A DNA stretch of 64,000 nucleotides from Dehalococcoidia bacterium (GCA_965242555.1 CBDESO010000003.1:251385-315384); one strand, 5' to 3'. Numbered from the stretch's first letter, positions 12,629-64,000 are shown. Numbers and translations are program-made. Notes: a model not told the origin generated them from the letters alone.

Positions 12629-12658
12629 CCCCAGCCGGCGGCGCTGGGGTTTTTGTTT
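12629..12658 (+). terminator. Rho-independent terminator (attenuator candidate)
   Basis: Stem CCCCAGC (12629-35) / GCTGGGG (12643-49), 7-nt loop, then TTTTTGTTT. Confidence 0.65.
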
Positions 12659-13928: not shown

Positions 13929-14064
13929 GGGCAAACCCTTATCGCGCAGCCTATCGCATAGATAGCCGCAACAACAAAATACGCGAACCGCAAGCCCCGC
14001 CTTGACCGCTGACAAGGCGGCAAGGCGGGGCAAGCCCATTCCCGCAATCATCCCGGAGGCAAAT

Positions 14065-14910: not shown

Positions 14911-15006
14911 CGCGCCGTGATACGATACCCCGTGATACCTTGTGATGGCGATGCCAAGCGGATACCCTGCCCGATTGCCGCGCCGCGCACTGCCCTGTGA
15001 TGCCCG

Positions 15007-15552: not shown

Positions 15553-15632
15553 TGGCGTGGACGTTGTTACCCAGTTTCCCCATTTAGTCTTCCCCTGTAT
15601 TATCAGAGTGAACTAGAAATAGGAACGGGCAT

Positions 15633-16418: not shown

Positions 16419-16734
16419 AGGGGCCGCTTAGGGGCTTGGCATAACTATACCACTATCTCTATGGGTTGCATAAACGGGCAGGCTATTGGCATATTCATAG
16501 CCCAAACCCCCCCATCCCTTGCTACGCTTGCTATACTAACATCTTGTAGTCTCTATAATAAAGGCGATTTTCGTTAAGCAATATGCGACGAATTATGACA
16601 ACTAACATGGGGTTGCCTATGCTCCCGAAACTTTTGAACAGGAATTCAAAGCAGGTTTATCTGATTGTTAATTGTCAGAAATCCAAATGCGCCTTCCCGC
16701 TATCAGTGTACAACGAACTATTCGGAGCAAGCCT

Positions 16735-19637: not shown

Positions 19638-19692
19638 ACACGCAACTATGGTAGCACATGAGGGGGATGGGGGGCAAGTTACTGATTTGCGG

Positions 19693-20535: not shown

Positions 20536-20543
20536 ATTTGCGG

Positions 20544-21386: not shown

Positions 21387-21394
21387 ATTTGCGG

Positions 21395-40883: not shown

Positions 40884-42836
40884 CTAGGCGTGATTCGGCT
40901 GCTTGGCGCAGGGGCGGCTAGTTGGATGTCGGGGTCGGACTGGGGCAACGTCGGGGTCAAGATGATCGGGGTAGCAGCTTTGATTAGCCGCGTCATCGCT
41001 ATTCGTGCCGTCTGGGCAGGTGGTGTCGTCCCAATCGACTTCCTCTATATCGCCCGCCTGTAGCATATTCTTCGCGCCCTCCAGATCGGCGTCATCGAAC
41101 TCGGCGTCGTTCACGCTGGTGTTTCGGAAATCGGCGCCGGGGAAGTCGGAGTTGGGGAATTTGGCGTCGTCCAAAGTGGCGCCCTCGAAGTCCACGTCGT
41201 CGAACTTGCAGTTCATAAAGATGGCGTCGGTCATGATGGCGTCATGGAGGATGGAACTATCGAAATCCACCCGCTCCCACCTGACTTTGGACATATCCAC
41301 ACCCGTCATATCCGCCTTGAGGAATTTCGTCTTCGTATCCACGATGGCGCTCGTCAGGTCAACCTTGTCCATTTTGGTGTCTTCCAACACCGCGCCGGAC
41401 AGGTCGGTCTTGTCCAAAGTGGCGGTTCGCAGGTCAGCGTCTTCCAGGATGGCGTTAATCAGCGATGAGTTGGACAAGTCGGCGTCGATAAAGCCCACGC
41501 CGCTGAGATCTATGCCCTCGTTGAATGCGACGTTGGTCAGTATCGCGCCCCTGAACTTGGCGGCGTTGTTCTTTTTGGCGTTTGTGGTTGCCCTAATGCG
41601 GGCGTCTGTGAGATTGACGCTGTCCATCTCGGCGCGCGTGAACTTGGTTTCGGTGATGTCCGCGCCGCTGAGGTTGGCGTTGTTCAGAATAGCGTCGGTC
41701 ATGTCTGTTTGCTTGAGGTTGGCGTTTGAGAGGTTGGCGCCGGTGAAGTTCGCCTTTCTGAGGTTGGAGTTGGTGATGATTGCGCCCGTTAGGTTGGCGT
41801 TGGCGAGGTCTTTTTCGGACCAGTCAACGCTGTTGAAAACGCAACCGATGAGGTCTGTGCCGGGGCCGATTTCGGCGCAGGGTTCGCGCGCGCCGGTGGC
41901 TGTGGGCTCAGGCGTGGGCGTGGATTCGAGAGCGGGAGTAGGCGGATTAGGCGTGGCAGTGGGCGTAGGCGTAGGCGTAGCGGGCGGCGCGCCTGCCACG
42001 GTTCCGTCCTCAAGATGCGCTACTCTGGTTGCCAGAATAGCGACCTGATTTTTGAGATCCGCCAGTTCCGCGAGCTGCGTTTCAAGCGCGATAAGCCTGG
42101 ATAGAAGGGCATCGTAGGACGCCGGAGTCGCGGTGGGCATGGGGGTTGAGGTGGATGCGGGCGTTGGCGCGGCAGCGCAAATTGGCAACGCAAGCCGCCT
42201 TATCTCCGCGCTGCCCAAAGGCAGGCGCAAGGATTGGGGAATACAACCCGTGAACCGATTGCCGTGGAGACGCAAACCATCAGAGCGCTCGAGGTTGGAA
42301 AGGTTGCCTAACTCGGAGGGAATCACGCCGGACAGGTCATTGTTTTCGAGATTCAATGCCTCAAGACTGGCAAGGTTGCCCAACTCGGAGGGGATCTCGC
42401 CCGTCAGGGCATTGTTTGCGAGATCCAATGCCCGAAGGCTGGCAAGGTTGCCCAACGCGGAAGGAATCGCGCCATTCAAGGATCTATCCGGCAAAGACAA
42501 TCTTGTTACGCGATTGTGTTCTATGGTTACGCCGCCCCAATCGCTAATGCGAATATCCGCCGACCAGTTTAGGTTGCCGCTCGCGCCTGCAAGCGTATCC
42601 TTTAAGGCGAGCAACGTGGCGCAGTCTTCCACAAGGCCGGGGTTGTATGCAAGGTTTGGCGCGGCTATGCCGTTGGAGCATTGCTCGGTGTACTGGGCGG
42701 GCATGGCGCGAGCCGATGCGTCCGCGTTAAGAGCGATTGCTCCGCCCGCGCCGGTCATCAGCAGCGAAACCGCTACCACTGACAGCGCCGCAACCAACGC
42801 TAGGGCGGCTGTTATTCTGATTGCGCGCTTGGACAT
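40884..42836 (-). CDS. Secreted LRR + coiled-coil + PT-linker + pentapeptide-repeat fusion protein
   Basis: Signal-like MSKRAIRITAALALVAALSVVAV (alternative upstream ATG at 42914). Plant-type LRRs (LxxLxLxxNxLxGxIPSELGNLxxL), [17 protein letters not shown], then over 250 aa of A(D/N)LxX pentapeptide repeats. Confidence 0.75.
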   Translation of the reverse strand: MSKRAIRITAALALVAALSVVAVSLLMTGAGGAIALNADASARAMPAQYTEQCSNGIAAPNLAYNPGLVEDCATLLALKDTLAGASGNLNWSADIRISDWGGVTIEHNRVTRLSLPDRSLNGAIPSALGNLASLRALDLANNALTGEIPSELGNLASLEALNLENNDLSGVIPSELGNLSNLERSDGLRLHGNRFTGCIPQSLRLPLGSAEIRRLALPICAAAPTPASTSTPMPTATPASYDALLSRLIALETQLAELADLKNQVAILATRVAHLEDGTVAGAPPATPTPTPTATPNPPTPALESTPTPEPTATGAREPCAEIGPGTDLIGCVFNSVDWSEKDLANANLTGAIITNSNLRKANFTGANLSNANLKQTDMTDAILNNANLSGADITETKFTRAEMDSVNLTDARIRATTNAKKNNAAKFRGAILTNVAFNEGIDLSGVGFIDADLSNSSLINAILEDADLRTATLDKTDLSGAVLEDTKMDKVDLTSAIVDTKTKFLKADMTGVDMSKVRWERVDFDSSILHDAIMTDAIFMNCKFDDVDFEGATLDDAKFPNSDFPGADFRNTSVNDAEFDDADLEGAKNMLQAGDIEEVDWDDTTCPDGTNSDDAANQSCYPDHLDPDVAPVRPRHPTSRPCAKQPNHA

Positions 42837-42981
42837 AGAGGGCTTGTTGTTCACTCGGTTATTACCTCGCGCTTGTTTGTTGGCGTGAGGGGACGCGGCG
42901 CATCTGCGTGGCATTCGGTTTAGATATGGTTATTGGGGCAAGTATAACAGCAAAGGTTGGCTTATGGATGGATGTGCGGGG

Positions 42982-47616: not shown

Positions 47617-48290
47617 GGTATTGTCATCCTGCAGGGTTAATGGGTTTGATGGACTGGTTTAGGCGCTCATCGAACACTATCGCCAGCAGATGTTTCAGCC
47701 TCTCCACGCTCTTTGTGTAGCCCTTTGTTCGCCTCACAAGCCTGTTCAGCTTGCTCCGCAACTTGGAATGCAACCCCTCATTCCGGTTCACCGCTCCGCC
47801 CGTGCCTATCGCACGCCGGCCGCGCGGCAGCCACTCGTACACCGGATAAGCGCCGGTCTCGTATCTATCAGCGCCCGGCAACCGACCCAACAAGCGCGAT
47901 AACGCAGACTCGCCCTTGCGGCCCACCTCATACATCCGCCAGCGGACGCCATTCGGCTCTTTCACCACCGCAGTCCATATCCACAGGTCTTTGCGACGCT
48001 CGCCGCGCCTGACGCCCAAGTATGCCCACATCTCATAAAACGCGCAATAGACGCGCGCCCGCCACTCCGCCGCCCACTCGTCCGCCACGCCAGAAACCGC
48101 GTCAGACGCTCGGTCGCCAACGCCCCTTTTTTTGACCCACGCGCTCAGCTTGGCTACGCTTGCGCCTACTACTCTCGCCATCGCCGATAGGCTCATTCCC
48201 TCGGCGCGCATCTTCACCGCTTGCTCTTTCTGTTCATCGGTGAACCGATGCTTTGCGCCCTCTTGATGTTTTGCCGCGCTTGTTCCCGCT
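47617..48290 (-). mobile_element. Decayed, 5-prime-truncated IS1-family copy
   Basis: The end GGTATTGTCATCCTGCAGGG at 47617. ORF 47624..48316 is a fused InsA(C-terminal)/InsB-like sequence without the Zn-finger. No second IR was found. Confidence 0.7.
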
Positions 48291-48461
48291 CGCGGCGTGG
48301 TTTTCAGAATATTCACCGACCGCGCGGCGCTTTCGGCGGCTACTTTTGGTTAAACGGCGGTTCATTCACAATCGCGCGGCAAAGCCTAGCGGGGGATTCG
48401 GCCGGTTGTCCGGATGCCGCAAAGTCGGGAATGGCGCGCCGCTATTAAGGTTGGGGCGCCG

Positions 48462-49577: not shown

Positions 49578-49949
49578 TCTGTCAGTTCTCCTTTCTCATT
49601 ATTTGTCCGCATACGAAACCATCGCGCGGCAAAGTCTAGCATACCTCGATTTTATCAACCCGACCGCCAGCGAGTAATCGGACATAGTATTCTCAGTGCG
49701 CCGCGCTATTTGAATTTTCGCCGCCGCTAAACCGAACTCCAACGCCTAGATTATCGCGTTCAGCGCGCATCCGGTTTTGATGCGGTTCAAAATAGCGCCG
49801 CAATATGGAAATACTGATAGAGCGCAGAGGGGATAAGCGCAAGCGCAAAGCACGGCTTGTCTTATACGGGCAAGCGGGTTACACTTGGCGCGCGACATTA
49901 TGCGCGGGCGCGGGATAGGTACAAGATAACAACGGGGGGTTTATGCGAT

Positions 49950-51341
49950 ATGGCTGCTGCGACTGGGATGCGGGAGGGGGAGGAGCTGAGGCGGGCGTCT
50001 TTGCGGTATTTGTGGATGCACAACCGCGATTGGACGCAGATGGCGGAGGAGGGGGAGCCTCAGATTATCGAGTCGGGCAAGGGCGTGCGGGTTGCGGATT
50101 CGGAGGGGCGGTCGTGGATTGATGTGAATGGCGGGTATAATTCGGTGAATGTGGGGTACGGGCGCACGGAGATAGGGCAGGCGGCGTATGAGCAGATGCG
50201 GCGGCTGTCGTATTTTCCTCAGGGGACTACTACCGAGCCAACCGCTCGGCTGGCGGCTAAGCTGGCGGAGCTGGCGCCGGGCAGCTTGTCACGGGTGTTT
50301 CCGGTGAGCGGCGGGTCGGAGGCGAATGAGACGGCGCTGAAGATCGCTAGGGCGTATTTCAAGCGCATCGGCGAGCCAAGCCGGTATAAGGTCATCAGCC
50401 GCGTGGGGTCGTATCACGGGATGACGGCGGGCGTGCTGTGGCTGGGAGGCAGCCCGCAGCAGCCGCGCCACGATTATGAGCCGGCGTATCCGGGGATGCT
50501 GCACGCGCCCCAGCCTAACGCCTATCGCGGCGGCGCGGACGGCGAGACGGCGGCGGAGCGCGCCGTCTATGCCGCCAACGAAATTGAGCGGCTGATTGAG
50601 TTTCACGGCGCGAAGACCGTGGCGGCGGTTATCGCAGAGCCGATAGCGATACCGCAGGGCGCGGTCGTGCCGGGCGACGAGTATTGGCCTATGCTGCGGC
50701 AAATATGCGACAAGCACGGCGTACTGCTTATCGCCGACGAAGTGATATGCGGGTTCGGGCGCACGGGCAAGATGTTCGCGCTGGAGCATTGGGGCGTCGT
50801 GCCGGACATTATGACGGTCGCCAAGGGCGTGGTGAGCAGCTACCTGCCGCTGGCGGCGGCGATAGTGCGCGAAGAGGTGGCGGACGCTTTCGCGGGGGAG
50901 GACAACATCCTGCGGCATGTGTTCACGGCGGCGGGGCATCCGGTTTCGGCGGCGGCGGCGCTGCGAAATATCCAAATCCTAGAAGAAGAGGGGCTGGTCG
51001 AGAACGCGGCGCAGGTGGGCGCTTATTTCAAAGAGCAGCTGGAGGGGCTTAAGGTGGATCACCCGCTTGTGGGCGATGTGCGCGGGCTGGGGATGCTGCT
51101 GGCGGTGGAGCTGGTGAGCGACCGCAAAACTAAGGCGGGGTTCGCGGCGGGCGAGCGCGTCCCTGATCGGCTGAACGAAAAGTTCAAAAAGCATGGGCTG
51201 ATATTCCGCGTCAACAGCAATATCCTGAACATAGGGCCGCCGCTGTGCATCACGCGGGACGAGGTGGACGAGATTGTGCATGCGATAGACTTGTCGCTGT
51301 GGGAGCTGGAGGGCGAGATGGGGATTGCGCGGATGACGTAG
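49950..51341 (+). CDS. Class-III (omega) aminotransferase, paralog 1
   Basis: Internal ATG aligned with the paralog's start. SGGSEANETALKIAR, IAEPI, LLIADEVICGFGRTGKMFA and VAKG. Confidence 0.85.
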   Translation: MAAATGMREGEELRRASLRYLWMHNRDWTQMAEEGEPQIIESGKGVRVADSEGRSWIDVNGGYNSVNVGYGRTEIGQAAYEQMRRLSYFPQGTTTEPTARLAAKLAELAPGSLSRVFPVSGGSEANETALKIARAYFKRIGEPSRYKVISRVGSYHGMTAGVLWLGGSPQQPRHDYEPAYPGMLHAPQPNAYRGGADGETAAERAVYAANEIERLIEFHGAKTVAAVIAEPIAIPQGAVVPGDEYWPMLRQICDKHGVLLIADEVICGFGRTGKMFALEHWGVVPDIMTVAKGVVSSYLPLAAAIVREEVADAFAGEDNILRHVFTAAGHPVSAAAALRNIQILEEEGLVENAAQVGAYFKEQLEGLKVDHPLVGDVRGLGMLLAVELVSDRKTKAGFAAGERVPDRLNEKFKKHGLIFRVNSNILNIGPPLCITRDEVDEIVHAIDLSLWELEGEMGIARMT

Positions 51342-51442: not shown

Positions 51443-52798
51443 ATGGCGAATATCAGCGAAATGGAGTCTGTGCGGCGGGATGCTTTGGCGCATCTTTGGA
51501 TGCACAACGCGGACTGGGCGACGATGGCGGAGGAGGGCGGGCCGCCGATTATGGTCGAGGGGAACGGCGTCCGCGTTACCGATAGCGAGGGGCGGGTTTG
51601 GATTGACGCGCACGGCGGATACGCCTCGGTGAACGCGGGCTACGGGCATGCCGAGATAGCGGACGCTATGCTGGAGCAGATGGAGCGGCTGACTTATTTT
51701 CCTCAGGGAACGACCACCGCGCCGATGATACGGCTTGCTGAGAAACTGGGGGAACTCGCGCCCGGGGATCTAGAGCGGGTTTGGCCTGTGAGCGGCGGGT
51801 CGGAGGCGAATGAGACGGCGATAAAGATAGCGCGCGCGTATCACAAGCGGCGCGGCGATAACGGGCGCTACAAGATTATCAGCAGGCGCGGCTCGTATCA
51901 CGGCGCTACGGGCGGCGTGATGTGGCTGGGCGCGAGCTCAGGGCTGGCGGATTTCGAGCCGGCGATGCCGGGGATGCTGTACGCGCCGCAGCCGGGCGAG
52001 TACCGGCGCGATTGCGGCGGCGCGACGGCGGCGGACTGCGACGAGCGCTGCGCGGACGCCATCGAAGAGCTCATACTGCTGCACAATCCCGCCACGGTGG
52101 CGGCGTTCATCGCGGAGCCGGTGGCGTCCGGCCTCGCGCCGCCCGCGCCGGAGTACTGGCACAAGGCGCGCGATATATGCGACCGCTACGGCGTCTTGCT
52201 GATAGCGGACGAGGTGGTAACCGGCTTTGGGCGCACTGGCAAGATGTTCGCAATGGAGCATTACGGGATTGTGGCGGACATAATGACGGTCGCCAAGGGC
52301 ATCACCAGCGGCTACCTGCCCTTGGCGGCGACCGTAGCGTCCACGCGCGTGGCGGACGCCTTCGCGGGGGAAGACAACGTATTCCGCCAAGCGCTCACAT
52401 TCGGCGGGCATCCCGTAACGGCGGCGGTGGCGCTCAAGAACATAGAGATAATAGAGCGCGACGGCCTAGTGGACAACGCGGCGCAGGTTGGCGCGTACTT
52501 CTTGGAACTGCTGCATGAGCTAAAGGCGGAGCATCCGATTGTGGGCGACGTGCGCGGCATAGGGCTGCTGCTTGGCCTGGAGCTGGTAAGCGACCGCGCC
52601 ACCAAAGCGCCGTTTGCGGAGGAGCTGCAGGTAGGCAAGCGCCTGACGCGCAAGATGCGCGAGCAGGGCGTGATAATGCGCGCGGGCGGGAATAGGGTTA
52701 CGCTGGGGCCGCCGCTGTGCATAACGCGGGATGATGTGGATGAGATAGTGGGGGCGATGGATCGGGGGATTGGGGAGGTGGAGGGGGAGGTTGGGTAG
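51443..52798 (+). CDS. Class-III (omega) aminotransferase, paralog 2
   Basis: SGGSEANETAIKIAR, LLIADEVVTGFGRTGKMFA and TVAKGITSGYLP. Confidence 0.85.
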   Translation: MANISEMESVRRDALAHLWMHNADWATMAEEGGPPIMVEGNGVRVTDSEGRVWIDAHGGYASVNAGYGHAEIADAMLEQMERLTYFPQGTTTAPMIRLAEKLGELAPGDLERVWPVSGGSEANETAIKIARAYHKRRGDNGRYKIISRRGSYHGATGGVMWLGASSGLADFEPAMPGMLYAPQPGEYRRDCGGATAADCDERCADAIEELILLHNPATVAAFIAEPVASGLAPPAPEYWHKARDICDRYGVLLIADEVVTGFGRTGKMFAMEHYGIVADIMTVAKGITSGYLPLAATVASTRVADAFAGEDNVFRQALTFGGHPVTAAVALKNIEIIERDGLVDNAAQVGAYFLELLHELKAEHPIVGDVRGIGLLLGLELVSDRATKAPFAEELQVGKRLTRKMREQGVIMRAGGNRVTLGPPLCITRDDVDEIVGAMDRGIGEVEGEVG

Positions 52799-53046
52799 AG
52801 GCGGATGTTGGGGGGATAAGGTAGTCTGACGGCGGCTGTTTAATGGGTAGCAAGCCAGGCGCGGCTGGCGGTTATGGGTGAGTTGTGAATGATAGGTTGT
52901 CGGTGGCTAATCGCCGCTGATATGGTAGTTGCTAATCGGCGAGCTGTTGGCTACATAGCGCTTGGATGATGCTTGCTAAGCCAAAGTGCGGACATCTTCA
53001 CTAAACCCGCCCACTAGACGCAGGACGATTAAATTTGAAACAACCC

Positions 53047-53076
53047 TTGACACGCGCCCAAAACCCCCGCTATTCT
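53047..53076 (+). promoter_or_regulatory. Sigma70-like promoter (TTGACA-18-TATTCT)
   Basis: TTGACA 53047-52 and TATTCT 53071-76, 100 nt before ATG 53176. Confidence 0.4.
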
Positions 53077-53104
53077 TATACCAGAACAAATTATCAGACA
53101 CCTA

Positions 53105-53143
53105 CCCAAAAGTTTTTGCTACTTTTTTCTAAAAAAGTAGGGC
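53105..53143 (-). repeat. Intergenic hairpin element (copy 11)
   Basis: Reverse complement GCCCTACTTTTTTAGAAAAAAGTAGCAAAAACTTTTGGG. Confidence 0.6.
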
Positions 53144-53175
53144 CCCGGCGGCGGGGGGACTTGGAGGCAACCAAC

Positions 53176-54750
53176 ATGACAACCGCAACCGCAACCCGCG
53201 AACCCATAACGCACGAACAGGCGCTATCCGAACAGGAACGCGTCCGCCACAACATCGCCCGCCGCGTCAACCAACTCACCCACGACGGCGACCGCCTCAT
53301 CCAATTCATGTGGGACACCGTCCAAGGCGAATACCCCGACGCCAAATTCCACCACCGCCAAAACGCCGCGCGCGACCTCGCCGTTATGAGCGGCAACCTC
53401 CCACAAGACACCCCCGGCTCCCCCGCTCGCGTCATCCGCGAAGAAGACATGCCCAAACCCAAAACCCCCAAAGTAACCCTAAAACAGATAATCAACAAGC
53501 CCATCGGCGCATACATACGCGAAAAAACCGACGACTGCCGCGACCTCGCAACCGAATACTACAACATCCTATTCCCGCGCCCCGTCTTCGAAAGCGCCAA
53601 CCCCGACGAAAAAAAATACCAAAAAGCCACCCGGATCCGCCCGCACCACCAAGTAGCCGCGCTCAAAGAAATGATGAAACGCAGCATCGGCAGCCGCAAC
53701 CCATACGCCTACCCGCAAACCTCCGCTATGGAAGAAAAAATGCTCAACAGCAAGTTGGGAACGGAAATGCGCCTGTCAATGGACAAAGGCATGGGATACG
53801 CGCGCTACATGTTCGAAATCCTAGAAAACGACAAAACCGACCGCTGGGGCAACATAATAACCGACCCCTTCACCCAAACCCACCGCATCTGGGCGCTCAA
53901 CGAACTCTGCCGCATGGGCGCCGACATCCCCTGGGAACACATAACCCCAGAGTCCATAGACGCCTTCTTCCGCGACCTCCACGCCAAAGAGCGCCGCGAG
54001 GCGGAACGCCTCCTAGCCCAGCGCCAACAATCCGCCGCCACCGAACTCACCCCTGAGCAAAAAGCCGGCGTCCTACAAATGTTCGAACAAATGCAGCGCA
54101 CAACCGACGCCAACGACCGCAAAGCCGCCAAGAAAACCCAAAAGAAAGCCAAAAAAGCCGACGCCGCCAAAGCCGACGCCCACAACTACAACAACCCCGC
54201 CAACCGCAGCGCCGTCGCCAACGCCGCCGATGACGCCAAGAGCGCCGCCAACGGCAACAATGGCGAGAATGGCAACAACGTCGCCAAAGACAGCGCCAAC
54301 GGCGAGAATGGCAACAACGTCGCAAATCGCAAAAACGCAGAGAGCGCCGCCAGCGGCAAGAATGGCGAGAATGTCAACAACGCCGCCAACCGCAAAAACG
54401 CCAAGAACGCCGCCAGCGGCAAGAGCGCTGCCAATGCCAAGAACACCGGCAAAGACACCGGCGCAGCCAACAGCGCCCACGCCCCCGACACCCCCACAAC
54501 CCGCGGCGAAACCGCCGTAGCCAACGCCCTAGCCCGCCACCCCGAAGTGGACTTGGACACTGCCTTGGAAAACCACCACTCCACCGCCGGCATCCCCAAA
54601 CAAAACCTAACCCACGAACAAATCTACGACGCCATCACAGCCGAGGCAAACTTCCAAAAACGCCAAGCCATAATCCAAAGCCGCCTGCGCTCAAAAAACC
54701 CCGACGCGGCCACTGAGGACAACGCTCCCCCCAAATCCCGCAGCCCTTAG
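53176..54750 (+). CDS. Hypothetical protein with an internally duplicated N-terminal module and an Asn/Gly/Ala/Lys low-complexity region
   Basis: Internal ATG after GGAGG. Two similar modules (LIQFMWDTV...HHRQNAARDLAVMSG / ARYMFEILE...THRIWALNELCRMG), then NGNNGENGNNVAKDSANGENGNNVANRKNA... Confidence 0.55.
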   Translation: MTTATATREPITHEQALSEQERVRHNIARRVNQLTHDGDRLIQFMWDTVQGEYPDAKFHHRQNAARDLAVMSGNLPQDTPGSPARVIREEDMPKPKTPKVTLKQIINKPIGAYIREKTDDCRDLATEYYNILFPRPVFESANPDEKKYQKATRIRPHHQVAALKEMMKRSIGSRNPYAYPQTSAMEEKMLNSKLGTEMRLSMDKGMGYARYMFEILENDKTDRWGNIITDPFTQTHRIWALNELCRMGADIPWEHITPESIDAFFRDLHAKERREAERLLAQRQQSAATELTPEQKAGVLQMFEQMQRTTDANDRKAAKKTQKKAKKADAAKADAHNYNNPANRSAVANAADDAKSAANGNNGENGNNVAKDSANGENGNNVANRKNAESAASGKNGENVNNAANRKNAKNAASGKSAANAKNTGKDTGAANSAHAPDTPTTRGETAVANALARHPEVDLDTALENHHSTAGIPKQNLTHEQIYDAITAEANFQKRQAIIQSRLRSKNPDAATEDNAPPKSRSP

Positions 54751-57044
54751 CTCGGCAAACCCGCGCCGCAAGCCTCCCCCAAAAACCCCCGCGCCCTCGC
54801 CCGATCCAGCCGCTCGTGGACGAACTGGTTGCGGTAGCTCCGCAGGCAGCCGTAGCAACTTGAGTCGCAACCGCAGGCGCCGGCCACGCGGCGGGCGGCG
54901 CTGCTCAGGGCATGGCCGAACACCGCGTCATCCCGCGCCAGCCGATCTACCAGGCCGGCGCCGCCGGGCGCGTTGTCGTACAGGACTATGGACACGCCGG
55001 CGCTTGCCCGCTCGCGCGACAGCGCCACGTTCAGGTCGGTTTCGGGCGCGCCCAGCGTCTCAGCGGCGCCAAGCAGCAGCGCGTAGCCGAGCGAATAGGC
55101 GTCGTCGGCGCATACAAGACCGGGGAACGACAGCCGCGTCACATCGGTGACCAGCTCATAGCCGTATGAGTGCTTGCCCATCTTGCCCTCGCAGGGCGCG
55201 CCGTAGAGCGTCCTGTGCTTTCGCAGCCGCTTGTCGGAGTGCCGCCCGCAGGCAAGGCAGATGTGAAAGCCTTTCTTGCCGCGCCCCTCGCTGAGGATGA
55301 ACAGGCTGCCCGGCGCGGCGGCGGTTACGCTCACGCCGCGCATCACGCTTTCGGCAGGCGCCTCGCCGCCCGCGAATCCGCCGAAGAACGGGCGCGTGGC
55401 GTACAGCCGCTCGCTCTTGCGCTGCGGCTCAACCGGCTTGTAGTTCATTTCGGTTGCGAAACCCCAATCGGGCGTCAGGTATTTTCTCACCTTGCTCGCG
55501 CCGCTTATGCCCTCCGGCTTTTCGTTCCACTGCTCAAACAGCCCATCGTCGCAGTAGCGGTAGTATTTGGATGTCGGCAATTTGCCGGGCATTATCTTGA
55601 TGCCGGACGATTCCCACACAAACTTGTTCGCCACTATCTTGTTGCCGGGCGCGTATTCGGCGATAGCCTGCGACAGGTCGCGCTGCAACGCGATGCCCCG
55701 CGCGGCGAACCCGGATGCGCCGCCCAGAATGTCCAACTCCACCACATCCACCGGAAAGCCGTACTTGGGCAATATCGCCTTGCGGGACAAAAACTCCGGC
55801 GCGCGCTCGCCCAAGACCGCCTTTAGCCTGCGCTGAATTCTGCCCGCGCTGGCATATTCGCCTCGCTGCGCGAACCCGATTTCAAGCGCTTGCAGCTCGC
55901 CGATGTCGTTCAACAGGCTGACGATGCCATCGTGAAGTCTGCTGCCCTCGCCCGCAATCTTGTCTATCCACGAGCCGTCCTCAAGCCCAACCGCCGGATG
56001 CGCGGCGGGCGGCGCGATGGCGATGAGCGTCTGACGCAATCTGGCGTTGGCGCGGCAGAAATCGCGCAGTTCGTCGGCAAGCTGGGCGGCGTCGCTATCG
56101 CCTATGAACTCGCGGACGCTGTTGAACCGCGCGGCGTTGCCGTCTTGCCTGAAGAACGCGCCCAGCGCCGCGGCGGTCATATGGCGCAGGATGATTTTGG
56201 CGTTCTCAACCCGAACCAGCGGCGGACGGGATCCGCCGTTAATCAGGTTTTGTTCGGGGTTTTCGTAGTAATGCAAGTCGTGCGAGCTGCGGCGGCAGTA
56301 TGTCAGCGCGAACCCGGGGCTGTTATCGCGGCGGCCCGCGCGCCCAACTCGCTGCGTGTAGTTGAACGCCTCCGGCGGCACATTCCTGAGGAACACAACA
56401 TCCAGTTCGCCAAGATCCACGCCTACCTCAAAGGTGGTGGATGAGCTCAGCAGGTTTATCTGCCCATCCTTGAAGGCGTCTTGGCGATCCTCCGCCTCGT
56501 CGGTGTCGAGTTGCGCGGTATGCTCTTCGGCGTGAAATGTGAGCGGCAGCGCGGCGCTTTCGTACAGGATGCGGTAGTGGTTTTCCCGCAGCGCGCTTTC
56601 GTCCGCCGGCCGCAACGCGCCGGAGCAGCGCCAGCGCGGACAGACGCGCCTGATGTTGACCAGGCTGACGCCGCCGCAAGTGCCGCAAGCCCATATCTCG
56701 CGCGGCGCGGGTTTCGCAATCCGCATAAACGCGGGGTTAAGCCTAAACGCGGCGTTGCCAACGCGCAGCAAAAGCTTTTCGTCTTTGCGCTTGCCATGGT
56801 CGCGCTGAGTGAGAGAGCGCCAAATCTCTTTCATCAAATCCTGCGCCGCCTCCGCGTCAACGCCCGCCGCGCTCGTCAGGAATTGGATGGCGTCAGATTG
56901 GGCATTGCCCCACTCTCTTGTAGATTTTGGACTCGGGCGTATCGGTTTCCCTGAATTTGGACGGGCGCGAATCCCAGTAGTTACGCAGGCGGTCGGCGAG
57001 ATCCGACGCGATCAGCCCCTCGCCGTCGATGGGCAAGTCGGTCA
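54747..57044 (-). pseudogene. C-terminal half of a split DUF1998-type DEAD/DEAH helicase (RecA2 motifs, Zn-ribbon, DUF1998 Cys cluster), with an extra 1-nt frameshift at 56908-56911
   Basis: HAEEHTAQL...FKDGQINLLSSSTTFEVGVDLGELDVVFLRNVPPEAFNYTQRVGRAGRR, and C-terminal CGCDSSCYGCLRSYRNQ. The reading frame starts exactly at TGACCGAC (57037-44 on +) beside an IS end. Confidence 0.8.
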
Positions 57045-57175
57045 TGTATTGTCATCATGCGGCGCAATTTTGGATCAAGTCAAAATTGCATTCCCGCTGA
57101 TGCGATAAATTAGGGCGCGAATCGCCGCTCATAATTGGCGAAAATTTCCATTAGCGCCGCAAGATAGGAATGTCA
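57045..57175. mobile_element. ~131-bp MITE-like relic carrying two IS1-family-type ends
   Basis: The left end tgtattgtcatcatgcggcgcaatt resembles GGTATTGTCATCCTGCAGGG of the 47617 copy. The right end ccattagcgccgcaagataggaatg resembles ccattggcgctgcgcgctgagaatacc. Confidence 0.5.
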
Positions 57176-57267
57176 ATTGACTGACTGGCTTGACGAAACG
57201 CAGTTCATCCGCCACAATCGGCTATTGTCGCAGGCGCTTGCCCCGCTACTTGCGCTGACGCCGGTTC

Positions 57268-58488
57268 GTGGTTGCGATAATCGGAGTTGCCGTGCCAAAA
57301 TTCACTTCACGGCTGCGTCCGCTCTTGATAGCCCTAGTTGTGTTCGGCGCGGTATACGTTGCGAGCGAAGTTAGGGATAGGATAGCGCACAGCCTCGCCG
57401 GCGCGTCAGATGTGCGGCTGGAAAGCGAGCTTTCGCATTACGAACACGGCCGCTCGGTCAGGCTCAGCGGGCGGCTGCGGTTCACGGACGCGGAGCGCGC
57501 GGATATTGACGCGGTCAGGCTTATCGTCAGAGGGCCGCAGAGTTTCGCCGCAAGGCTGCCGCTGCGCCAAGGGCGCTTTGACATATCCGGCCTGGCGGGC
57601 GTTCCCGGAATTCTGACCGGCGGGACGCAGCTTAATTCGGTGGACAATCCGATGGCGCGCGTGTATAAGGGCAACGCGTCGGGGGCGTCCATTTCGTTCC
57701 AAGCCTTTTGGACGCCGGACTCGCTGAGGCGCTCCGGCGGCGGCTATACTGCCAGGCTGTCGGTCAAGCTCAGCGACGCCGAATCACCGATGAATAGCCG
57801 CGCGGCGCGGTTTTATATCAGCCATCCCACGCCTACCATAACGCCAACCGCTACGGTGACCATCACGCCAACGCCGTCGGTGACGGCAACGGCCACAGCC
57901 ACGCAGACGCCTACGGCTACGCGCACGCCTACTATTACACCATCCCCCACATCTACGATCACGCCAACTGGCACGCCCACGACTACGTCCACAGCCACCC
58001 TCACGCCAACCGCCACTCACACCCCCACGCCGACCGCCACCGCCGCGCTCACGCCAACTCCCGTTCTCACCGCCACCGCAACGCTCGCGCCGCCGCCCAC
58101 GCCTACCATCGCGCCTACATTCACGCCGCTACCCACCGCAACCGCCGCGCCCACCGAGCCGCCTGCCACTGCCACCGCTCTGCTCCCAACCACCGCTCCC
58201 ACGGCGCCACCGACAGCAACGGCACCGCCCGCGCGTCCGGCCCAGTCGACGCCCACGCCGGCGCCCAGTGCGGCGACGCCCGCAGTTCGCGTCGTGCTTG
58301 CCGTAACGCCGCCCCCACCCGCTCCCCCGCAACTTCCCGCATCATCCGCGCCCGCGTCCCCGCGCCCGCCCGCCGCCGCTCCGGCCGAACCCGCGCTTGC
58401 GCCCCTCGCCATCGCCGTGATTTTTGGCATAGCCGTGATTGCCGCGCTGTTCGCGCTCATCGTAGGCGTGGCGAGGCGGTTCAGGTAG
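57268..58488 (+). CDS. Membrane protein anchored at both termini: N-terminal TM, ~170-aa domain, PT/PA-rich linker, C-terminal TM (gene 1 of the helicase operon)
   Basis: ORF track. [14 protein letters not shown] near the N-terminus and [27 protein letters not shown] at the C-terminus. The start may be GTG 57292 (GGAG upstream). Confidence 0.6.
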
Positions 58489-58508
58489 AGAGCCAGAGAG
58501 CCGCCCCT

Positions 58509-60893
58509 ATGCGCCTCATCAACAAGACAACCATCTGCGCGGCGGCGCTCGGACTGCTCTTGCTCTACATCATTCGCAAGCGCAAGACTGCCGACGAGCA
58601 GCCCGTCTCAGACAGCGATGCGGCGTCGGCATACGCCAATGTGGCCGAGGCCGCGCCCGTTGTGTCAGCGCCGTCAGCCACGCATACGCCCGCGGACGCG
58701 CCTGTGGACATTGCGCCGCCCTCCGATGATAGCCCCGATACGCAAGCGGATACGGGCGTCGCGGCGCATCCGGATATTTCGGTGTACGAAGATGCGTTTG
58801 AGCAGGAAGACGCGGCGCTAGACGAACCGCTGCCTGGCGATAGCGTTCATGATACGCAAGCGGATGGCGCGCTAGACGAACCGCCACCCGCCGATGATAC
58901 TCACGATACCCAAGCCGACGCCGCCCAAGCCGAACCCCCGCCCGCGAGCGAAGTTCCCCCGAAGTCGCTGGCCAGCCCTCAGCGCAAGCCTAGCGCGCAA
59001 CCGCCGCCCAAGCGTCAACGCCAACCCGCGGCGACAAGAACGCAGCCCAAGCGCCAACGCCGTCCTGCGGCAAGCGCGCAATCTACGCGCCAATCTAAAC
59101 CGCGCAGGCATATGGGACGCAGGGTTCGCAAGGGCGTATATTATGCGCCCCTTTCGCCGCCGACCGAAAGGGCAAGCCTGCGCTGCCGCGAAACGAGTGA
59201 GGGCTGGGAGATATACCTTGCTATTCCGCAAGAGAGCGCGGTGGTCAAGGTGACGCATGGCGGCGATGAGTTGCAGGTAGCCTCTGAAACTGAATTGCCG
59301 CTGAGTCAGTTTGCGGGCGACGTAGCCGTTCACTACCAAGACAATACTGCCAGGCTGACGCTGTTCAACGCGGCGGATGGCAAGCCCTTGTTCTTCAAGA
59401 TGCGAGAGAACTGGGAGGGCGAGGGCAGGCTTGTCAATAACCCCACGGCGGGACATATATTGGCTATCGCGCCACTAGATTACGACGCAAGCGAATGGGA
59501 TGACTACGAAAGCAATGAGCCTGAGGAATGCGTTGACGAGAATTTCGAGGCGAGGTTTCTGTTCTTGGAGGGCGCTGCGCCCGGTCGTCCCGCCCGAATG
59601 CGGATTAAGGGCAAGGCGCTCCATGATGACGCCGACGCTGAGTATCACGGCAAACTCTACATCGGAGCGCCGCCCGAACTGCACGTGGATCCTCAGATAA
59701 CCGACGCCCGAATTGTTGAGGAAACAGGGGGGCGCAAGGACAATGAGTGGGGCGAAAATTTCGCCCCGCACAGGCAGTCAATCGCCGCCATGCTGGACGG
59801 GCGCGATGGCAGGTTTTCCATCCGCACATACCACGATGGGGATTTGCAAGAAAGCAAGCCGTTCAGATATTTCCCCACGCTCAGGCGCATCGCCATTAAC
59901 GGCAATCAGCACAGCCCTGGCACTGCGCTGATGCCGGATACGCGCGCGGGAACCCATCGTGAAATAGCGTTGCGGTTTGAACTAGATAGCGGCGCATGCC
60001 TGCGTCCATACAGCGTTAGCCACGACAACGAAGTTCACATTGACGACGACGATGTCGTAATCATACCCCCGTCGCCATCAATCCAAACACTGACTTGCGA
60101 CTTTCCCAACCGCGCGGCAATCGCGGTGGCAGTGCCGCGCGTGTGGTGGCGGCTGACGGACGAGGACGGCGCAACGGGCGAGTGGGGCGGCGAGACTTAT
60201 GAGTTCTCCCGAAACGAATTCATGAACTTGATCAAAGCCCGTATAGAGATAAGCGCGCCGCCTGCGATAAAGGCGGTTGAGGTTGGGTTCAGCGATGATG
60301 CGATGAATGAACGCAAAGCCTCGCAAGGCGCGGTTGAGTTCGGGCTGATGGTCTTCGCGGATTATAAGGAAGTGTTCGATGCGCTAGACAAAACGCTGCA
60401 CCTGAACATACGCGTGAACGGGCAAACCGCGCCTATATTGCGTGTTCTGGCAGACACTGCGCTAGACGAATCCGCCGCTGATAAGGCGCTGCTAAATCTT
60501 CGGGACAGATACACGGCGCGCGCAATGCCATCAGCGTCTCCGCGCGATCGGTCGACTCCAAGCACAGACGGGTGGGCTAGAGGAGCGCACGACGTCCGAT
60601 TGGAAAGAATGAAGAGGCCGGACACCCTTAAAGAGGGCGAGTCTGTGTTTGGCGATGTCGTACAAATCGCGCAGGGCAGTCATTTGGTGTTGGAGATAAC
60701 CGTCAAGAGCAGTCATTCCTTTCACGGCATTTTGGAATGGAGCGAAATGAAAACAATGCCGAAAACTGAACGCGCCGAAATCACCATTGGACAGAAGTTG
60801 CCCGTCTATGTGATAAAAGCGCCGCCAGGACGACGGGCGCGGCTGTCAGTTGATAGACTGACTGACGAGAATCACAACGCGGCCGAAAACTAA
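58509..60893 (+). CDS. 794-aa protein: N-terminal TM anchor, acidic DTQAD repeats, basic KRQR tract, large unknown domain, C-terminal S1/OB-like domain (gene 2 of the helicase operon)
   Basis: TTICAAALGLLLLYIIRKRK; PPKRQRQPAATRTQPKRQRRP. The C-terminus GESVFGDVVQIAQGSHLVLEI...FHGILEWSEM...IGQKLPVYVIKA...RARLSVDRL follows the S1-domain pattern. Confidence 0.6.
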   Translation: MRLINKTTICAAALGLLLLYIIRKRKTADEQPVSDSDAASAYANVAEAAPVVSAPSATHTPADAPVDIAPPSDDSPDTQADTGVAAHPDISVYEDAFEQEDAALDEPLPGDSVHDTQADGALDEPPPADDTHDTQADAAQAEPPPASEVPPKSLASPQRKPSAQPPPKRQRQPAATRTQPKRQRRPAASAQSTRQSKPRRHMGRRVRKGVYYAPLSPPTERASLRCRETSEGWEIYLAIPQESAVVKVTHGGDELQVASETELPLSQFAGDVAVHYQDNTARLTLFNAADGKPLFFKMRENWEGEGRLVNNPTAGHILAIAPLDYDASEWDDYESNEPEECVDENFEARFLFLEGAAPGRPARMRIKGKALHDDADAEYHGKLYIGAPPELHVDPQITDARIVEETGGRKDNEWGENFAPHRQSIAAMLDGRDGRFSIRTYHDGDLQESKPFRYFPTLRRIAINGNQHSPGTALMPDTRAGTHREIALRFELDSGACLRPYSVSHDNEVHIDDDDVVIIPPSPSIQTLTCDFPNRAAIAVAVPRVWWRLTDEDGATGEWGGETYEFSRNEFMNLIKARIEISAPPAIKAVEVGFSDDAMNERKASQGAVEFGLMVFADYKEVFDALDKTLHLNIRVNGQTAPILRVLADTALDESAADKALLNLRDRYTARAMPSASPRDRSTPSTDGWARGAHDVRLERMKRPDTLKEGESVFGDVVQIAQGSHLVLEITVKSSHSFHGILEWSEMKTMPKTERAEITIGQKLPVYVIKAPPGRRARLSVDRLTDENHNAAEN

Positions 60894-60916
60894 CTTATCG
60901 CGCCGGGGGTTGCCCT

Positions 60917-62587
60917 ATGGACGACCACGCCGCTTGGACAGAATTCATTGAGCGCAGCTACATCAATTACCTGAAAACGTCGTTCTATTTCAGGGACAAG
61001 GCGCTGCGCGATTCGTTCCAAGAGGCGCTGGGACAGGAGGGGGCGCTGCTGAAGGGGCCATTCCCCGAACCCGCTTATGATTTTGAGAGGGGCGCCCGCG
61101 CAAGCGAGCTCGCCGCGCGGTTCTTTCCTGGCAATGCCGAGGGCTTGGCGCCCGCGCTGCTGGATGGCGAGCTGTACGCGCATCAAGAGGCCGCCGTTCA
61201 AAGCGCTTTCGGCTACGATATGAACATCGTGGTCGCCACCGGCACGGCGAGCGGCAAGACGGAATGTTTTCTGTATCCAATCCTGTTTGACTTGTATCGT
61301 CAATATCTGAGCGGCGAGATTGCCGAGCCGGGCGTCCGCGCTATGATCATCTACCCGATGAACGCGCTTGCAAACGACCAGCGCCAGCGGCTGGGCGCGC
61401 TTTGCGGCAAGCTCGCCGCCGCCAAGTCGGACTTTCGATTTACATTCGGGCAATATACAGGGCAGACGCCGGAGAACATCCGCGACCGACATCGCAACGG
61501 GCAAGCCAAGCAGGACGACAGGCTGCCCGGCGAGGTCGTCTTCCGCGAAGAGATGCGGGCTAATCCGCCCAACATCCTGCTCACCAACTACTCTATGCTG
61601 GAATACCTGCTCATTCGCCCGCACGACAGCCCGCTGTTCGAGCGCGGGCGGCATTGGCGGTTTATCGCGCTTGACGAGGCGCATCTGCACAGGGGCGCGC
61701 GCGGCGCCGAAATGGGCATGCTGATGCGCCGCCTCAAACGGCGCGTCGCCGAGGGCGGGCGCGCAAGCCCGTTCACCTGCATCGCCACCAGCGCCACCAT
61801 CACATCGGCGCAAACGCGGTCGGCGCGCAAAGAAGTGGCGGATTTCGCAGCCGCGCTTTTCGGCGAGCCGTTCTCGGCGGATTCGGTCATCTTTGGCAAG
61901 ACGCAGCCGCAAGCCAACGGCGGCGCGCCGCGCAGGCGCCACCTGTTCGCCCGCGCGTTGGAAAGCGCGTTTCTGGTTCACGAAAGCGGCAAAGACAGGG
62001 TGGCGCTAAACCGCACGGCGTTGGGGCAAGACGCCGCGCCGATTGAGATAGCGCTCTGCCGCGATTGCGGGCAGCACTACTACATCGGGCGCGAATCGGC
62101 GGGCAAGCTTGCGGAGCCGATTCGCGATCCCAGCGCCGCGGGTTTCGGCGTAACCTACTTTATGCCCATAGACGCCGCCGCGTCCGCCGCCGCCACGCAT
62201 ATCCTCTGCCGCCGCTGCGCCGGTATAGCAAGCGTTGCAAGCGTCGCAAGCGGCAAGGCGGGGTTGGCATGCAACTGCCGCGCCTCCGCCGTTATCCGCG
62301 TCAAGAAGTGCGAATCGGACAAAGCCAATCCCGACCAGATAAAATCCTGCGAATTCTGCGGCTACACAAGGGGCGGCTACAAAGACCCCGTGCAAGAGAT
62401 AGTTCACGGATCCGACGGCCCAAACGCGGTTTTCGTTACGGCGCTGCATCAGCTCTTGAACAAGGATAGGCGCAGGGTGCTGTCATTCGCGGACAGCCGT
62501 CAAGAGGCGGCGTTCTTCGCGTGGTACGCCGAAAATTCGTATGGCGATATTGTTGACCGCAACTCCATCCTGCGCGCGCTGACCGAC
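60917..62587 (+). pseudogene. N-terminal half of the split DUF1998-type DEAD/DEAH helicase (motifs I-III, Zn-ribbons, start of RecA2)
   Basis: LYAHQEAAV, VVATGTASGKTECF, YPMNALANDQ, LLTNYSMLEYLL, IALDEAHLHRG, ATSATI, CRDCGQHYY and LSFADSRQEAAFFA. The native sequence ends at TGACCGAC (62580-87), and the last codons (RILIL*) come from the IS end. Confidence 0.8.
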
Positions 62588-63031
62588 CGTATTCTCATAC
62601 TGTAGGGTTAATGGATTTGAGGGACTGATTTAGACATTCCTCAAGCTCTATCGCCAGCATATGTTTCAATATTTCCACGCTCTTTGCGTAGCCCTTTGTC
62701 CGCCTCGCCAGCCTATTCAGCTTGATACGCAACTTGGAACGCAGCCCCTCATCCGGTTCACCGCCGCGCGCATATTCGCCGCTCGCTCTTGCTGTTCGTC
62801 AGTGAACCGATGCTTTGCGCCCTCTCGACGCTTGCAGCGGCGCTGGTTGCATTTGCATTGTTGCTTGCCGCGTGAGCGCCCGTCTTTTTTGATGCAGTTT
62901 GAGCCGCATTTTGGGCATAGCGAGTCGTGTCTGTACACGCTCGGTTTCGCCATAGATCCACCCGTCTTTCAGCCGTTCCGGAGCGATTTAGGACAAGTAT
63001 GTCATATTGGCGCTTGCAGGGTGAGAATACC
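62588..63031 (-). mobile_element. Internally deleted IS1-family copy (444 bp) with both ends
   Basis: cgtattctcatactgtaggg at 62588 and cttgcagggtgagaatacc ending at 63031. Retains insB 3-prime and insA remnants (ORF 62717..62953 is MAKPSVYRHDSLCPKCGSN...) and lacks ~400 bp of insB. Confidence 0.75.
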
Positions 63032-63085
63032 GCCCCGCTGCGTAGTCTGCGGCGCGATGACTAGCGGCATGGATGTCATAGGCAG

Positions 63086-63248
63086 GTGAACCGGATGAGG
63101 GATTTGCGCTCCAAGTTGCGGAGCAATCTGAACAGGCTGGTGAGGCGCGCAAAGAGTGTGGCAATGCTGAAACATCTGCCGGCAATTGTGTTTGAGGAGC
63201 GCCTAAATTAGTCCATCAAATCCATTGGCGCTGCGCGCTGAGAATACC
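63086..63248 (+). mobile_element. IS1-family 3-prime fragment (insB C-terminus plus IRR)
   Basis: gtgaaccggatgaggg...ctgaaacatctgcc...ccattggcgctgcgcgctgagaatacc. It is an inverted copy of 62588-62765. Confidence 0.7.
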
Positions 63249-63389
63249 ACGCTACCGAACTGTGGTTGACGACAAGCGCTTTTGGCGATTAGAGTGGGGA
63301 ATGCTTTGGAATAATTAGAACCCCTGCCGGCCGGATGCCCGCCCGCGAACTCGGAAGATATAGTTGAACCTAGCACAGTCTATCGGCTT

Positions 63390-63683
63390 GTGAGGATCGC
63401 CCCGCCTAGCCTTGACGATTTTAGATCTCAGCGCGCGGATAACCATGTCGCTACATTCAGGCGTGTTACCGAACGTCAGGCGCGCGGAGTGTCGGTGTTC
63501 ATAAGCATTGAAGATGTGAACAAGAGGCGGGAAAGGCCCCGTCTAAGCGGGACGCTGATTTGCGCGGTAGTTTTGGACAAGGGAGCGGGGCGCATCCTGC
63601 AACCAAACCGTAAGTCGTCGCATTGCACTTGGTGGCCGCTAGCCAATTACGACATCCTAGCGAATTGTCGGGTGATAGCATGA
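63390..63683 (+). CDS. Hypothetical protein (frame open from 63315; start uncertain)
   Basis: ORF track. Its stop overlaps the next ATG (ATGA at 63680-83). Confidence 0.4.
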   Translation: MRIAPPSLDDFRSQRADNHVATFRRVTERQARGVSVFISIEDVNKRRERPRLSGTLICAVVLDKGAGRILQPNRKSSHCTWWPLANYDILANCRVIA

Positions 63684-64000
63684 GGACTATCAAGCCCGTC
63701 GCAGTCCTGGATTACTACGACGGGATACAGATATTTGAGGGGCGCGACTCTATCGGCGGCCACTACATCGCGGTGTTGATAGACAGCGTGGGCAGTGCCT
63801 ATCGCTACGTAGCGACAGGCGCGAACCCTGAGCGACTTCGGCAGTTCAGGGTTGGCGACCTAGATCTGCGGACGCTGCTCTTGGAGGCGCCGGGCGGCGA
63901 GTGGTTCTTCATATACGCGGATGCTCCATACGGAGAGTCGCTGACGCTGCTGCCTCAAGAGGGGCCGCTTGCTGATCGAAAGGACTTGCTGCCCGGCCCA
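63680..64000 (+). CDS. Hypothetical protein, 3-prime truncated by the window edge (absent from the ORF track)
   Basis: Hand translation gives MRTIKPVAVLDYYDGIQIFEGRDSIGGHYIAVLIDSVG...LLPGP, open to nt 64000. Confidence 0.45.
   Translation, partial: MRTIKPVAVLDYYDGIQIFEGRDSIGGHYIAVLIDSVGSAYRYVATGANPERLRQFRVGDLDLRTLLLEAPGGEWFFIYADAPYGESLTLLPQEGPLADRKDLLPGP

Follow-up and report, generated by a model that had tools for sequence, protein, structure and literature searches.

The 64,000-nucleotide (nt) stretch of Dehalococcoidia bacterium DNA analysed here (GCA_965242555.1 CBDESO010000003.1:251385-315384), referred to as the window, very probably contained, between positions 54747 and 63248, the wreck of a three-gene defence operon composed of gene1, gene2, and a DruE-like helicase gene of the YprA family (product of ~1410 residues), in which the helicase gene had been split by transposition of an IS1-family insertion sequence (IS) and by an inversion. 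The two parts of the helicase gene, the N-half and the C-half, were located on opposite strands. They were compared with three intact loci, L001 (helicase of 1410 residues), L002 (1408 residues), and L017 (1417 residues; on a 3.43-Mb contig), and the same rearrangement was found in a second genome, L013. An earlier reading of this DNA, made from the letters alone (the sequence-only reading), had proposed that a single helicase gene was disrupted by an IS1-family element and that the 8-bp target duplication could still be recovered. This was borne out by the single-chain homologues, which were colinear with the joined halves, and by the intact alleles, in which the duplicated octamer was single. 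The components of the locus, together with the IS copies used as references, were the following, in window coordinates.

54747..57036, minus strand: helicase gene from codon 558 onwards to the stop (C-terminal part), 88–94% identical to L001, L002, and L017 by blastn, with Pfam Helicase_C and MZB on the joined protein.
56926..56927, minus strand: deletion scar marking the loss of 308 nt (102 codons plus 2 nt), from comparison with L001, also present in L013.
57037..57044, minus strand: copy of the target duplication TGACCGAC (plus-strand letters GTCGGTCA), a single octamer in the intact alleles.
57045..57174, no strand given: non-coding element of 130 bp like a miniature inverted-repeat transposable element (MITE), whose terminal inverted repeats are imperfect and of IS1-family type, with a homologue at 49687-49815 and an orthologue in L013.
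57175..57267, plus strand: upstream region of the operon with a promoter-like site, from alignment to the intact alleles.
57268..58488, plus strand: gene1, an open reading frame (ORF) of 406 residues with counterparts in close relatives.
58509..60893, plus strand: gene2, an ORF of 794 residues with homologues directly upstream of the helicase in diverse phyla.
60917..62587, plus strand: N-terminal 557 codons of the helicase gene, covering RecA1, inserted domains, and the first RecA2 strand, from the ORF, Pfam, and alignment to the intact alleles.
62580..62587, plus strand: copy of the target duplication TGACCGAC, a single octamer in the intact alleles.
62588..63031, minus strand: IS1-family element of 444 bp, internally deleted, from alignment to the full IS copies.
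63032..63248, plus strand: second IS copy, 5'-truncated, with the 3' end of insB and a right terminal inverted repeat (IRR) at 63248.
19693-20535, minus strand, and 20544-21386, plus strand: two full IS copies, which served to delimit the IS, to measure its target duplication, and to assign its family.

The three intact loci, which had been sought as the uninterrupted counterpart in related genomes, shared the gene order gene1 (395–404 residues), gene2 (790–808 residues), and the helicase last, and were 93–95% identical to the split helicase. When the window was aligned with them, positions 57189-62586 matched the intact upstream region, gene1, gene2, and the N-half, and positions 57044-56926 and 56927-54775, when reversed, matched the intact C-half. 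The promoter–gene1–gene2–N-half segment (5.4 kb) was inverted relative to the C-half. Both ORFs in which helicase motifs had earlier been quoted were present. The ORF at 60917..62605 (plus strand) ran five codons into the IS before its stop, giving 562 residues in total, and the ORF at 54747..56837 (minus strand) was the longest one of the C-half remnant. The remainder of RecA2, the OB-CON region, and the MZB/DUF1998 Cys cluster were all encoded in the C-half.

The octamer TGACCGAC at 62580-62587 (plus strand) adjoined an IS1-type end at 62588, and its inverted copy (GTCGGTCA) at 57037-57044 adjoined another at 57045. Both copies directly abutted GGTATT(C/G)TCA... ends, which was the terminal repeat type of an 843-bp IS1-family element in the window. 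The octamer was counted only seven times on both strands of the 64-kb window, and therefore its adjacency to two IS ends by chance would be of the order of 1e-4 or less. In L001, L002, and L017, the octamer was present once, at the colinear position, as GCGCTGACCGA(C/T), and the other copies of the IS were bordered by ATTTGCGG and not by TGACCGAC. Therefore, TGACCGAC was target DNA, and the concern that it might belong to the terminal repeats of the IS was removed.

When 60917..62587 was joined with the reverse complement of 57036..54747, the reading frame was kept across the join, as had been predicted, and the joined protein aligned colinearly with single-chain homologues. The protein read RALTD followed across the join by LPIDGEG, and the corresponding segments were RALTDMPIDGEG in the intact homologue P0001 and RALTDQPIDGE and RALTDRPIDGEG in other homologues. 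The octamer, which occupied helicase codons 555–557, was duplicated by the insertion, and no residue was lost at the join. At the left junction, positions 57043-57045 (minus strand) created an ATG from the A of the MITE end and the TG of the octamer, in frame with the C-half (MTDLPIDGEG...), and a promoter-like site inside the MITE (57083-57054, minus strand) pointed at it. This ATG was probably a coincidence; L013 lacked it.

Two different helicase copies could also have been truncated independently, so that the halves only resembled one gene, and a paralogue of 56% identity in a related genome (L009) shows that second copies exist. However, both halves were 93–95% identical to the same intact alleles and met at the exact octamer with nothing missing or repeated beyond 8 bp, and two separate insertions at the same base pair would be improbable. 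We regard this explanation as very improbable.

The joined protein contained PF00270 (DEAD, residues 88–297), PF00271 (Helicase_C, residues 723–793), and PF09369 (MZB, residues 1207–1288). The DEAD, Helicase_C, and MrfA zinc-binding (MZB/DUF1998) domains expected from the sequence-only reading were thus all matched, and intact homologues had the same three domains in one chain. In PADLOC, the joined helicase matched DruE1 and DruE3 at 1e-145. When P0001 was searched against PDB chains, it matched 9tu7_Y (4e-82), 9wae_A (7e-40), and YprA 6znp (7e-22); 9tu7 and 9wae, whose entry names say only 'helicase', were taken to be DruE from their length and date. A database search returned hundreds of single-chain homologues of 1395–1457 residues, the closest being 93% identical. 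These matches assign the helicase to the YprA family as a DruE-like member, and it likely belongs to the anti-phage system Druantia III. Many database proteins of this helicase family had 340–980 residues with the DEAD part only. DruE-like helicases may often occur as fragments or in truncated form, although the short entries could include contig ends.

The two full IS copies were 843 bp each and 91% identical, and were arranged head to head, with one left terminal inverted repeat (IRL) facing the other. The octamer ATTTGCGG was found three times in direct orientation, to the left of the two copies, between them as a spacer of exactly 8 bp, and to their right. Therefore, the element makes 8-bp duplications. 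Its terminal repeats were GGTATT(C/A)T..GTGCAGTGCTAAT at both ends of the full copies. The reading frames insA (20610-20900, 96 residues) and insB' (20792-21379, 195 residues) overlapped at an A7 run (20868-20874), where a −1 shift predicted from the sequence would give a single InsAB' protein of 256 residues. InsAB' matched the NCBIfam model NF033558 'IS1 family transposase' with 117.4 bits (cutoff 100) over profile positions 1-198 of 199, and InsB' passed PF03400 (DDE_Tnp_IS1) with 28.8 bits against a cutoff of 24.1. Members of the IS1 family in ISfinder have short terminal inverted repeats starting with GGT, target duplications of 8–9 bp, and lengths of ~0.75–1.2 kb. The element was a member of the IS1 family, as its transposase models, insA/insB' layout, ends, duplication, and length all fitted. 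It shared with the family the −1 frameshift at an A-run between insA and insB', the DDE_Tnp_IS1 domain, GGT... repeats of ~25 nt, 8-bp duplications, and a family-like length of 843 bp. However, it was distant from the IS1 of E. coli (117 bits with NCBIfam and 29 bits with Pfam), and its host was a Dehalococcoidia metagenome-assembled genome (MAG), in which 130-bp MITE-like derivatives were found alongside. The head-to-head pair, at 19685-21394 with its flanking octamers, looked like a second insertion into the duplication of the first. A third IS copy (47617-48316, minus strand) was 5'-truncated and contained a fused InsAB-like ORF of 230 residues that needed no frameshift.

The sequence-only reading had taken both junction elements as deletion relics of the IS, of 131 and 444 bp. 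This description fitted the right element, which at 62588-63031 had an IRR at 62588 and an IRL at 63031, had lost ~400 bp internally, and kept a truncated insA. The length of 444 bp was correct, but the relic was compound, because the second, 5'-truncated IS copy (63032-63248) directly abutted its IRL and ended in an IRR. The 444-bp element and this second fragment therefore formed inverted arms of 100 nt.

The left element was of a different kind. Both of its terminal repeats were present in the 130 bp, the inverted repeats matched each other at 14 of 20 positions, and the operon-side end was IRR-like. It had only ~25 nt of inverted repeat in common with the IS, and no similarity was detected between its interior and the subterminal regions of the IS (z<=2.7). 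Its homologue at 49687-49815 was 73% identical over 70 nt (E=2e-4), and its orthologue in L013 was 79% identical. No direct duplication was found at either MITE-like copy in the window, and the element was absent upstream of the intact alleles in the loci compared. The left element therefore seems better termed MITE-like than a deletion relic. The first bases of the junction elements were non-canonical, with C at 62588 and T at 57045. In L013, the right junction read GACCGAC followed by GGTATTCTC, and the left element began with G; the C and T are later substitutions. The 129-bp homologue at 49687-49815 had IS1-type inverted repeats of ~28 nt. Two class-III aminotransferase paralogues were arranged in tandem beside it (49857-51341 and 51443-52798), and the element was located upstream of the first at a distance of 40 bp.

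L013 (OZ251547.1), an independently assembled Dehalococcoidia MAG chromosome of 3.5 Mb, was found by a scan of species-representative genomes. Its order was that of the window, with the C-half (minus strand), octamer, MITE, gene1, gene2, N-half, octamer, deleted IS, and IS fragment, and it carried the same 308-nt scar, both junctions, and the same relics. The identity between the window and L013 ranged along the locus from 99.7% down to 78%, and L013 was a different genome because the divergence was 1–22%, depending on the segment. Therefore, given the common architecture and scar, the rearrangement predated the split of the two lineages and was not an assembly artefact.

This comparison also bore on whether the two halves were linked as shown. 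Misassembly classically arises at IS copies and repeats, and at least five related elements were present in the window, but the independent OZ251547.1 assembly had the same order, junctions, scar, and relics, which answered the linkage question raised earlier. An assembly chimera is extremely improbable. A scan of Joint Genome Institute (JGI) metagenome contigs for the junction of the N-half with the IS gave no match, and no contig was retrieved by exact-protein look-ups with the N-half, gene2, or P0121.

When window positions 51755-64000 were compared with L013, the divergence was very uneven: low in the final 310 nt of the helicase (0.3%) and in the aminotransferase (1.5%), higher in the N-half (4%) and across gene1 and gene2 (12–13%), and highest, at 22%, in the region of the MITE and promoter. 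The defence locus is a mosaic that is much older than the surrounding genome. The L009 locus of the same chromosome (OZ251547.1 2447653-2467849) contained a second, apparently intact DruE-like helicase, the one with 56% identity, accompanied by a gene2 homologue of its own. The same IS was present around this helicase in three copies, one of which (7014-7867) separated gene2 from the helicase.

The C-half was further damaged. Relative to L001, 308 nt (positions 1766-2073 of the coding sequence) were missing, with the junction at window positions 56926/56927. The missing piece was bounded in L001 by TCCAAA and TCCAAG, and the window kept one TCCAAA. The loss of 308 nt therefore shifted the frame in the C-half. 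The sequence-only reading had placed a 1-nt frameshift in a C4 run (56908-11) and reconstructed a protein of ~1319 residues. Neither held, since the true lesion was the 308-nt deletion between TCCAA(A/G) direct repeats, and homologues were ~91 residues longer than that reconstruction. Deleting one C from the run opened a frame of 1319 residues by an accident of the deletion. The ancestral helicase had ~1410–1417 residues.

When substitutions in the C-half were assigned to branches, the window branch had 30 synonymous and 31 non-synonymous changes, compared with 30 and 7 on the L001 branch (Fisher p=0.0025). The non-synonymous divergence (dN) of the C-half from the outgroup L002 was 0.081 for the window, 0.102 for L013, and 0.064 for the intact alleles, and the C-half of L013 had a further deletion of 1220 nt. 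The C-half was under relaxed constraint as a decaying pseudogene remnant, and the helicase as such was dead.

The observed order could be produced in a single step. When the joint structures were worked through, it was the exact product of an intramolecular transposition in trans, and IS1 classically also makes in-trans inversions. The published signature of intramolecular replicative transposition in trans, as described for IS26 and for Tn4401 (He et al. 2015, mBio, PMC4471558), consists of inverted target duplications that each adjoin one copy of the IS. Here, the inverted octamers at 62580-87 and 57037-44 each abutted an IS end, at 62588 and 57045, respectively. The relative orientation of the two breakpoint elements also appeared inverted, with the IRR-like end of the left element on the operon side and the IRR of the right element at 62588, as judged from ~10 nt.

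The following order and number of steps are what we infer. An IS1-family element upstream of the operon promoter would have attacked the octamer in the helicase gene 5.4 kb away. The attack would have duplicated the octamer and inverted the promoter–gene1–gene2–N-half segment, leaving an inverted octamer at each breakpoint beside an IS1-type end. Possibly, the ends of two neighbouring related elements were used, with the IRR of the IS synapsed with the end of a neighbouring MITE in a composite-like manner; such a hybrid synapsis would account for different elements in a single step. The C-half would then also have lost 308 nt by slippage between the TCCAA repeats and decayed, and all of these steps would have preceded the divergence of the two Dehalococcoidia genomes. 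A single intramolecular transposition in trans by an element upstream of the operon has, in our view, about an even chance of being the correct history. The likeness to the IS26 and Tn4401 inversions lay in the inversion of the segment between element and target, the inverted duplication of an 8-bp target, and the gene split into inverted parts. In contrast to those cases, the bracketing elements here were not identical, a second flanking pair was missing, the family was IS1 and not IS6, and the event was ancient and eroded.

Several observations weighed against this history of the locus. The breakpoint elements were not copies of one element, as one was the 130-bp MITE-like element and the other the 444-bp deleted IS, with ~25 nt shared. 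No second inverted pair of flanking repeats was found at 57175 versus 63032 or 63249 in the flanks of the window and of L013; in the window, positions 57175-82 read ATTGACTG, which matched neither AGCGGGGC nor GGTAGCGT, the reverse complements of 63032-39 and 63249-56, respectively. The missing pair counts against the one-step model because a simple one-step model predicts it. In addition, the N-half showed no relaxed constraint, unlike the expectation for a long-dead gene, and the relaxation in the C-half was only mild although the non-coding relics differed by 4–22% between the split genomes.

The sequence-only reading had explained the inversion by recombination between two inverted IS copies. 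The geometry fitted, but the elements differed, and the one-step route gave the same geometry. In such a two-step history, a simple IS insertion, flanked by direct 8-bp repeats, would have been followed by homologous recombination with an inverted copy upstream of gene1. The final arrangement would be identical to that seen, and several IS copies in the window and in a related genome made recombination partners available. However, the ~25 nt shared by the present elements are too little for RecA recombination, so that two full copies, later replaced or eroded, would be required. The left element had its own homologue at 49687-49815 and no likeness to the interior of the IS, and no allele with the insertion and without the inversion was found among the relatives. 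Furthermore, such patterns have been argued to be usually one-step events (He et al., PMC4471558). The two-step history is possible but can be proposed only tentatively, and a one-step event is no less likely than an insertion with later recombination. The different bracketing elements and the lack of a second inverted octamer pair fitted neither simple route, and more complex histories take up the remaining probability.

The N-half differed from the C-half in its substitution pattern. Between the two split genomes (window and L013), the ratio of non-synonymous to synonymous substitution rates (dN/dS) of the N-half was 0.137, compared with 0.17–0.23 between intact alleles. Its dN from L002 was 0.054 and 0.055 for the split alleles and 0.050 and 0.054 for the intact alleles. 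The terminal branches of the N-half had 28 synonymous and 7 non-synonymous changes, and 17 and 5, respectively (binomial test against neutrality, p=4e-18), and the differences over codon positions 1, 2, and 3 were 14:6:49. The ORFs of gene1, gene2, and the N-half were open in both split genomes, and the dN/dS of gene1 and gene2 between the split genomes was the same as in comparisons with intact alleles. A promoter-like site (TTGACG-17-CACAAT) was located at 57190-57218, and homology with all intact alleles started at 57189.

These observations raise the alternative that the split was not plain decay, and that the promoter–gene1–gene2–N-half unit was kept by selection, with the C-half dispensable or supplied in trans. 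The N-half dN/dS as low as between intact alleles, the equal dN to the outgroup, the codon-position pattern, the intact ORFs in both genomes, and the kept promoter-like site all argue for it. However, the N-half lacks the RecA2 motifs V and VI. An SF2 helicase without these motifs does not hydrolyse ATP. The 1220-nt deletion destroyed the C-half in L013, which excluded complementation in trans there. In addition, conflicting site patterns (14/10/4) and uneven divergence (0–22%) point to recombination with intact alleles, which could import variation that looks selected. This alternative is doubtful, if conceivable.

The split alleles, as represented by the two genomes compared, may have been patched through recombinational exchange with intact alleles from the same population, as the site patterns, the uneven divergence, and the flanking aminotransferase with only 1.5% difference suggest. 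It is rather unlikely that the 562-residue N-terminal fragment has been kept for long by purifying selection with gene1, gene2, and the native promoter, as a helicase-dead yet functional remnant. If so, the remnant could serve as a sensor or partner module, or it could regulate the second, intact DruE-like system of that genome.

The product of gene1 was rich in Thr and Pro, had counterparts only in close relatives, and was probably membrane-bound. In the gene2 product, a disordered linker joined an N-terminal helix to a beta-rich core, and the C-terminus held a putative S1-like OB fold. Its AlphaFold (AF2) model was poor, with a predicted local distance difference test (pLDDT) score of 45.8, and Foldseek gave weak S1/OB matches (E~0.01) for the C-terminal 80 residues. 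Homologues of gene2 immediately preceded the helicase gene at 12 or more loci spanning several phyla, in MAGs of Dehalococcoidia, SAR202, Pseudomonadales, Longimicrobiales, Gemmatimonadetes, Poribacteria, Rhodothermales, Acidobacteriota, and Rhodobacterales. Searches of Pfam, PADLOC, NCBIfam, and PDB sequences gave no match for gene1, gene2, or a neighbouring ORF at 53035-54750, and gene2 with five homologues gave no match to the PADLOC DruH models at E<=1.

The Druantia III-B-like branch is composed of DruH and a DruE without a nuclease, and most III-B-like helicases lack a C-terminal PLD (Bell et al. 2025, PMC12458937); a more compact DruE was noted in bioRxiv 10.64898/2026.05.13.724758. A Pfam scan found no PLD domain in the present helicase, which ended ~30 residues after MZB, and the helicase therefore fitted the nuclease-less III-B-like branch and not type III-A (PMC12458937). 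Also shared with this branch were the strong match to the DruE hidden Markov models and a core of two genes, in which a large unannotated partner immediately precedes an MZB helicase of the YprA family. However, the helicase had ~1410 residues compared with 1970–2108 for the solved DruE, gene2 lacked a match to DruH (PADLOC) or to the PDB, and the Thr/Pro-rich gene1 was additional. The system in the window was broken. The parts of a YprA-family helicase are also encoded on separate genes in DISARM (DrmA and DrmB). In contrast to this locus, the DISARM split follows RecA2, between the helicase core and OB-CON-DUF1998, and the genes are adjacent and co-oriented, whereas here the break was inside RecA2 and made by an IS, and the halves were in different transcription units with a frameshifting deletion.

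Inactivation of a defence gene by an IS is an ordinary phenomenon, and the split alone carries little weight, as a textbook route to losing a costly defence gene. The locus provides a clean and fully reconstructible case, from an uncultured Dehalococcoidia lineage, of an inversion by an IS1-family element that left inverted target duplications. The 1410-residue helicase would escape an annotation pipeline, which would call two unrelated 'DEAD helicase' fragments instead. The locus also highlights a widespread unannotated module, found in many MAGs of marine or sponge type, of a partner of 670–890 residues, which current DruH models do not recognise, and a nuclease-less DruE-like helicase of 1400 residues. 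If the N-half is truly selected, it would be a natural experiment on Druantia-like parts acting without a motor. Follow-up is warranted only for the unexpected conservation of the N-half and for the unannotated partner family.

The neighbouring ORF at 53035-54750 (571 residues) contained a long Asn/Ala/Lys/Gly-rich region of 9-nt repeats. It converged on the helicase C-half, with the stops overlapping by 4 nt, was 95% identical in L013, and was absent beside the intact alleles. In the intact loci (L001 11888-18386 and L017 16823-22427), the helicase was followed by DUF499, NYN, DUF1156, and PLD-SNF2 genes. In L013, NYN and PLD-SNF2 genes with 75–80% identity were located at 12554-16738, to the right of the IS cluster and in the opposite orientation. 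The two defence modules thus appear to travel together in shuffled order, and the right-flank arrangement of L013 fits the shuffling of defence-island modules and is compatible with the inversion model. Leucine-rich repeat (LRR) protein genes were located divergently upstream of the intact operons in L002 (3699-6020) and L017 (5406-8267). A window LRR gene with 70–77% similarity (40884-42914, minus strand) was located ~15 kb from the split operon.

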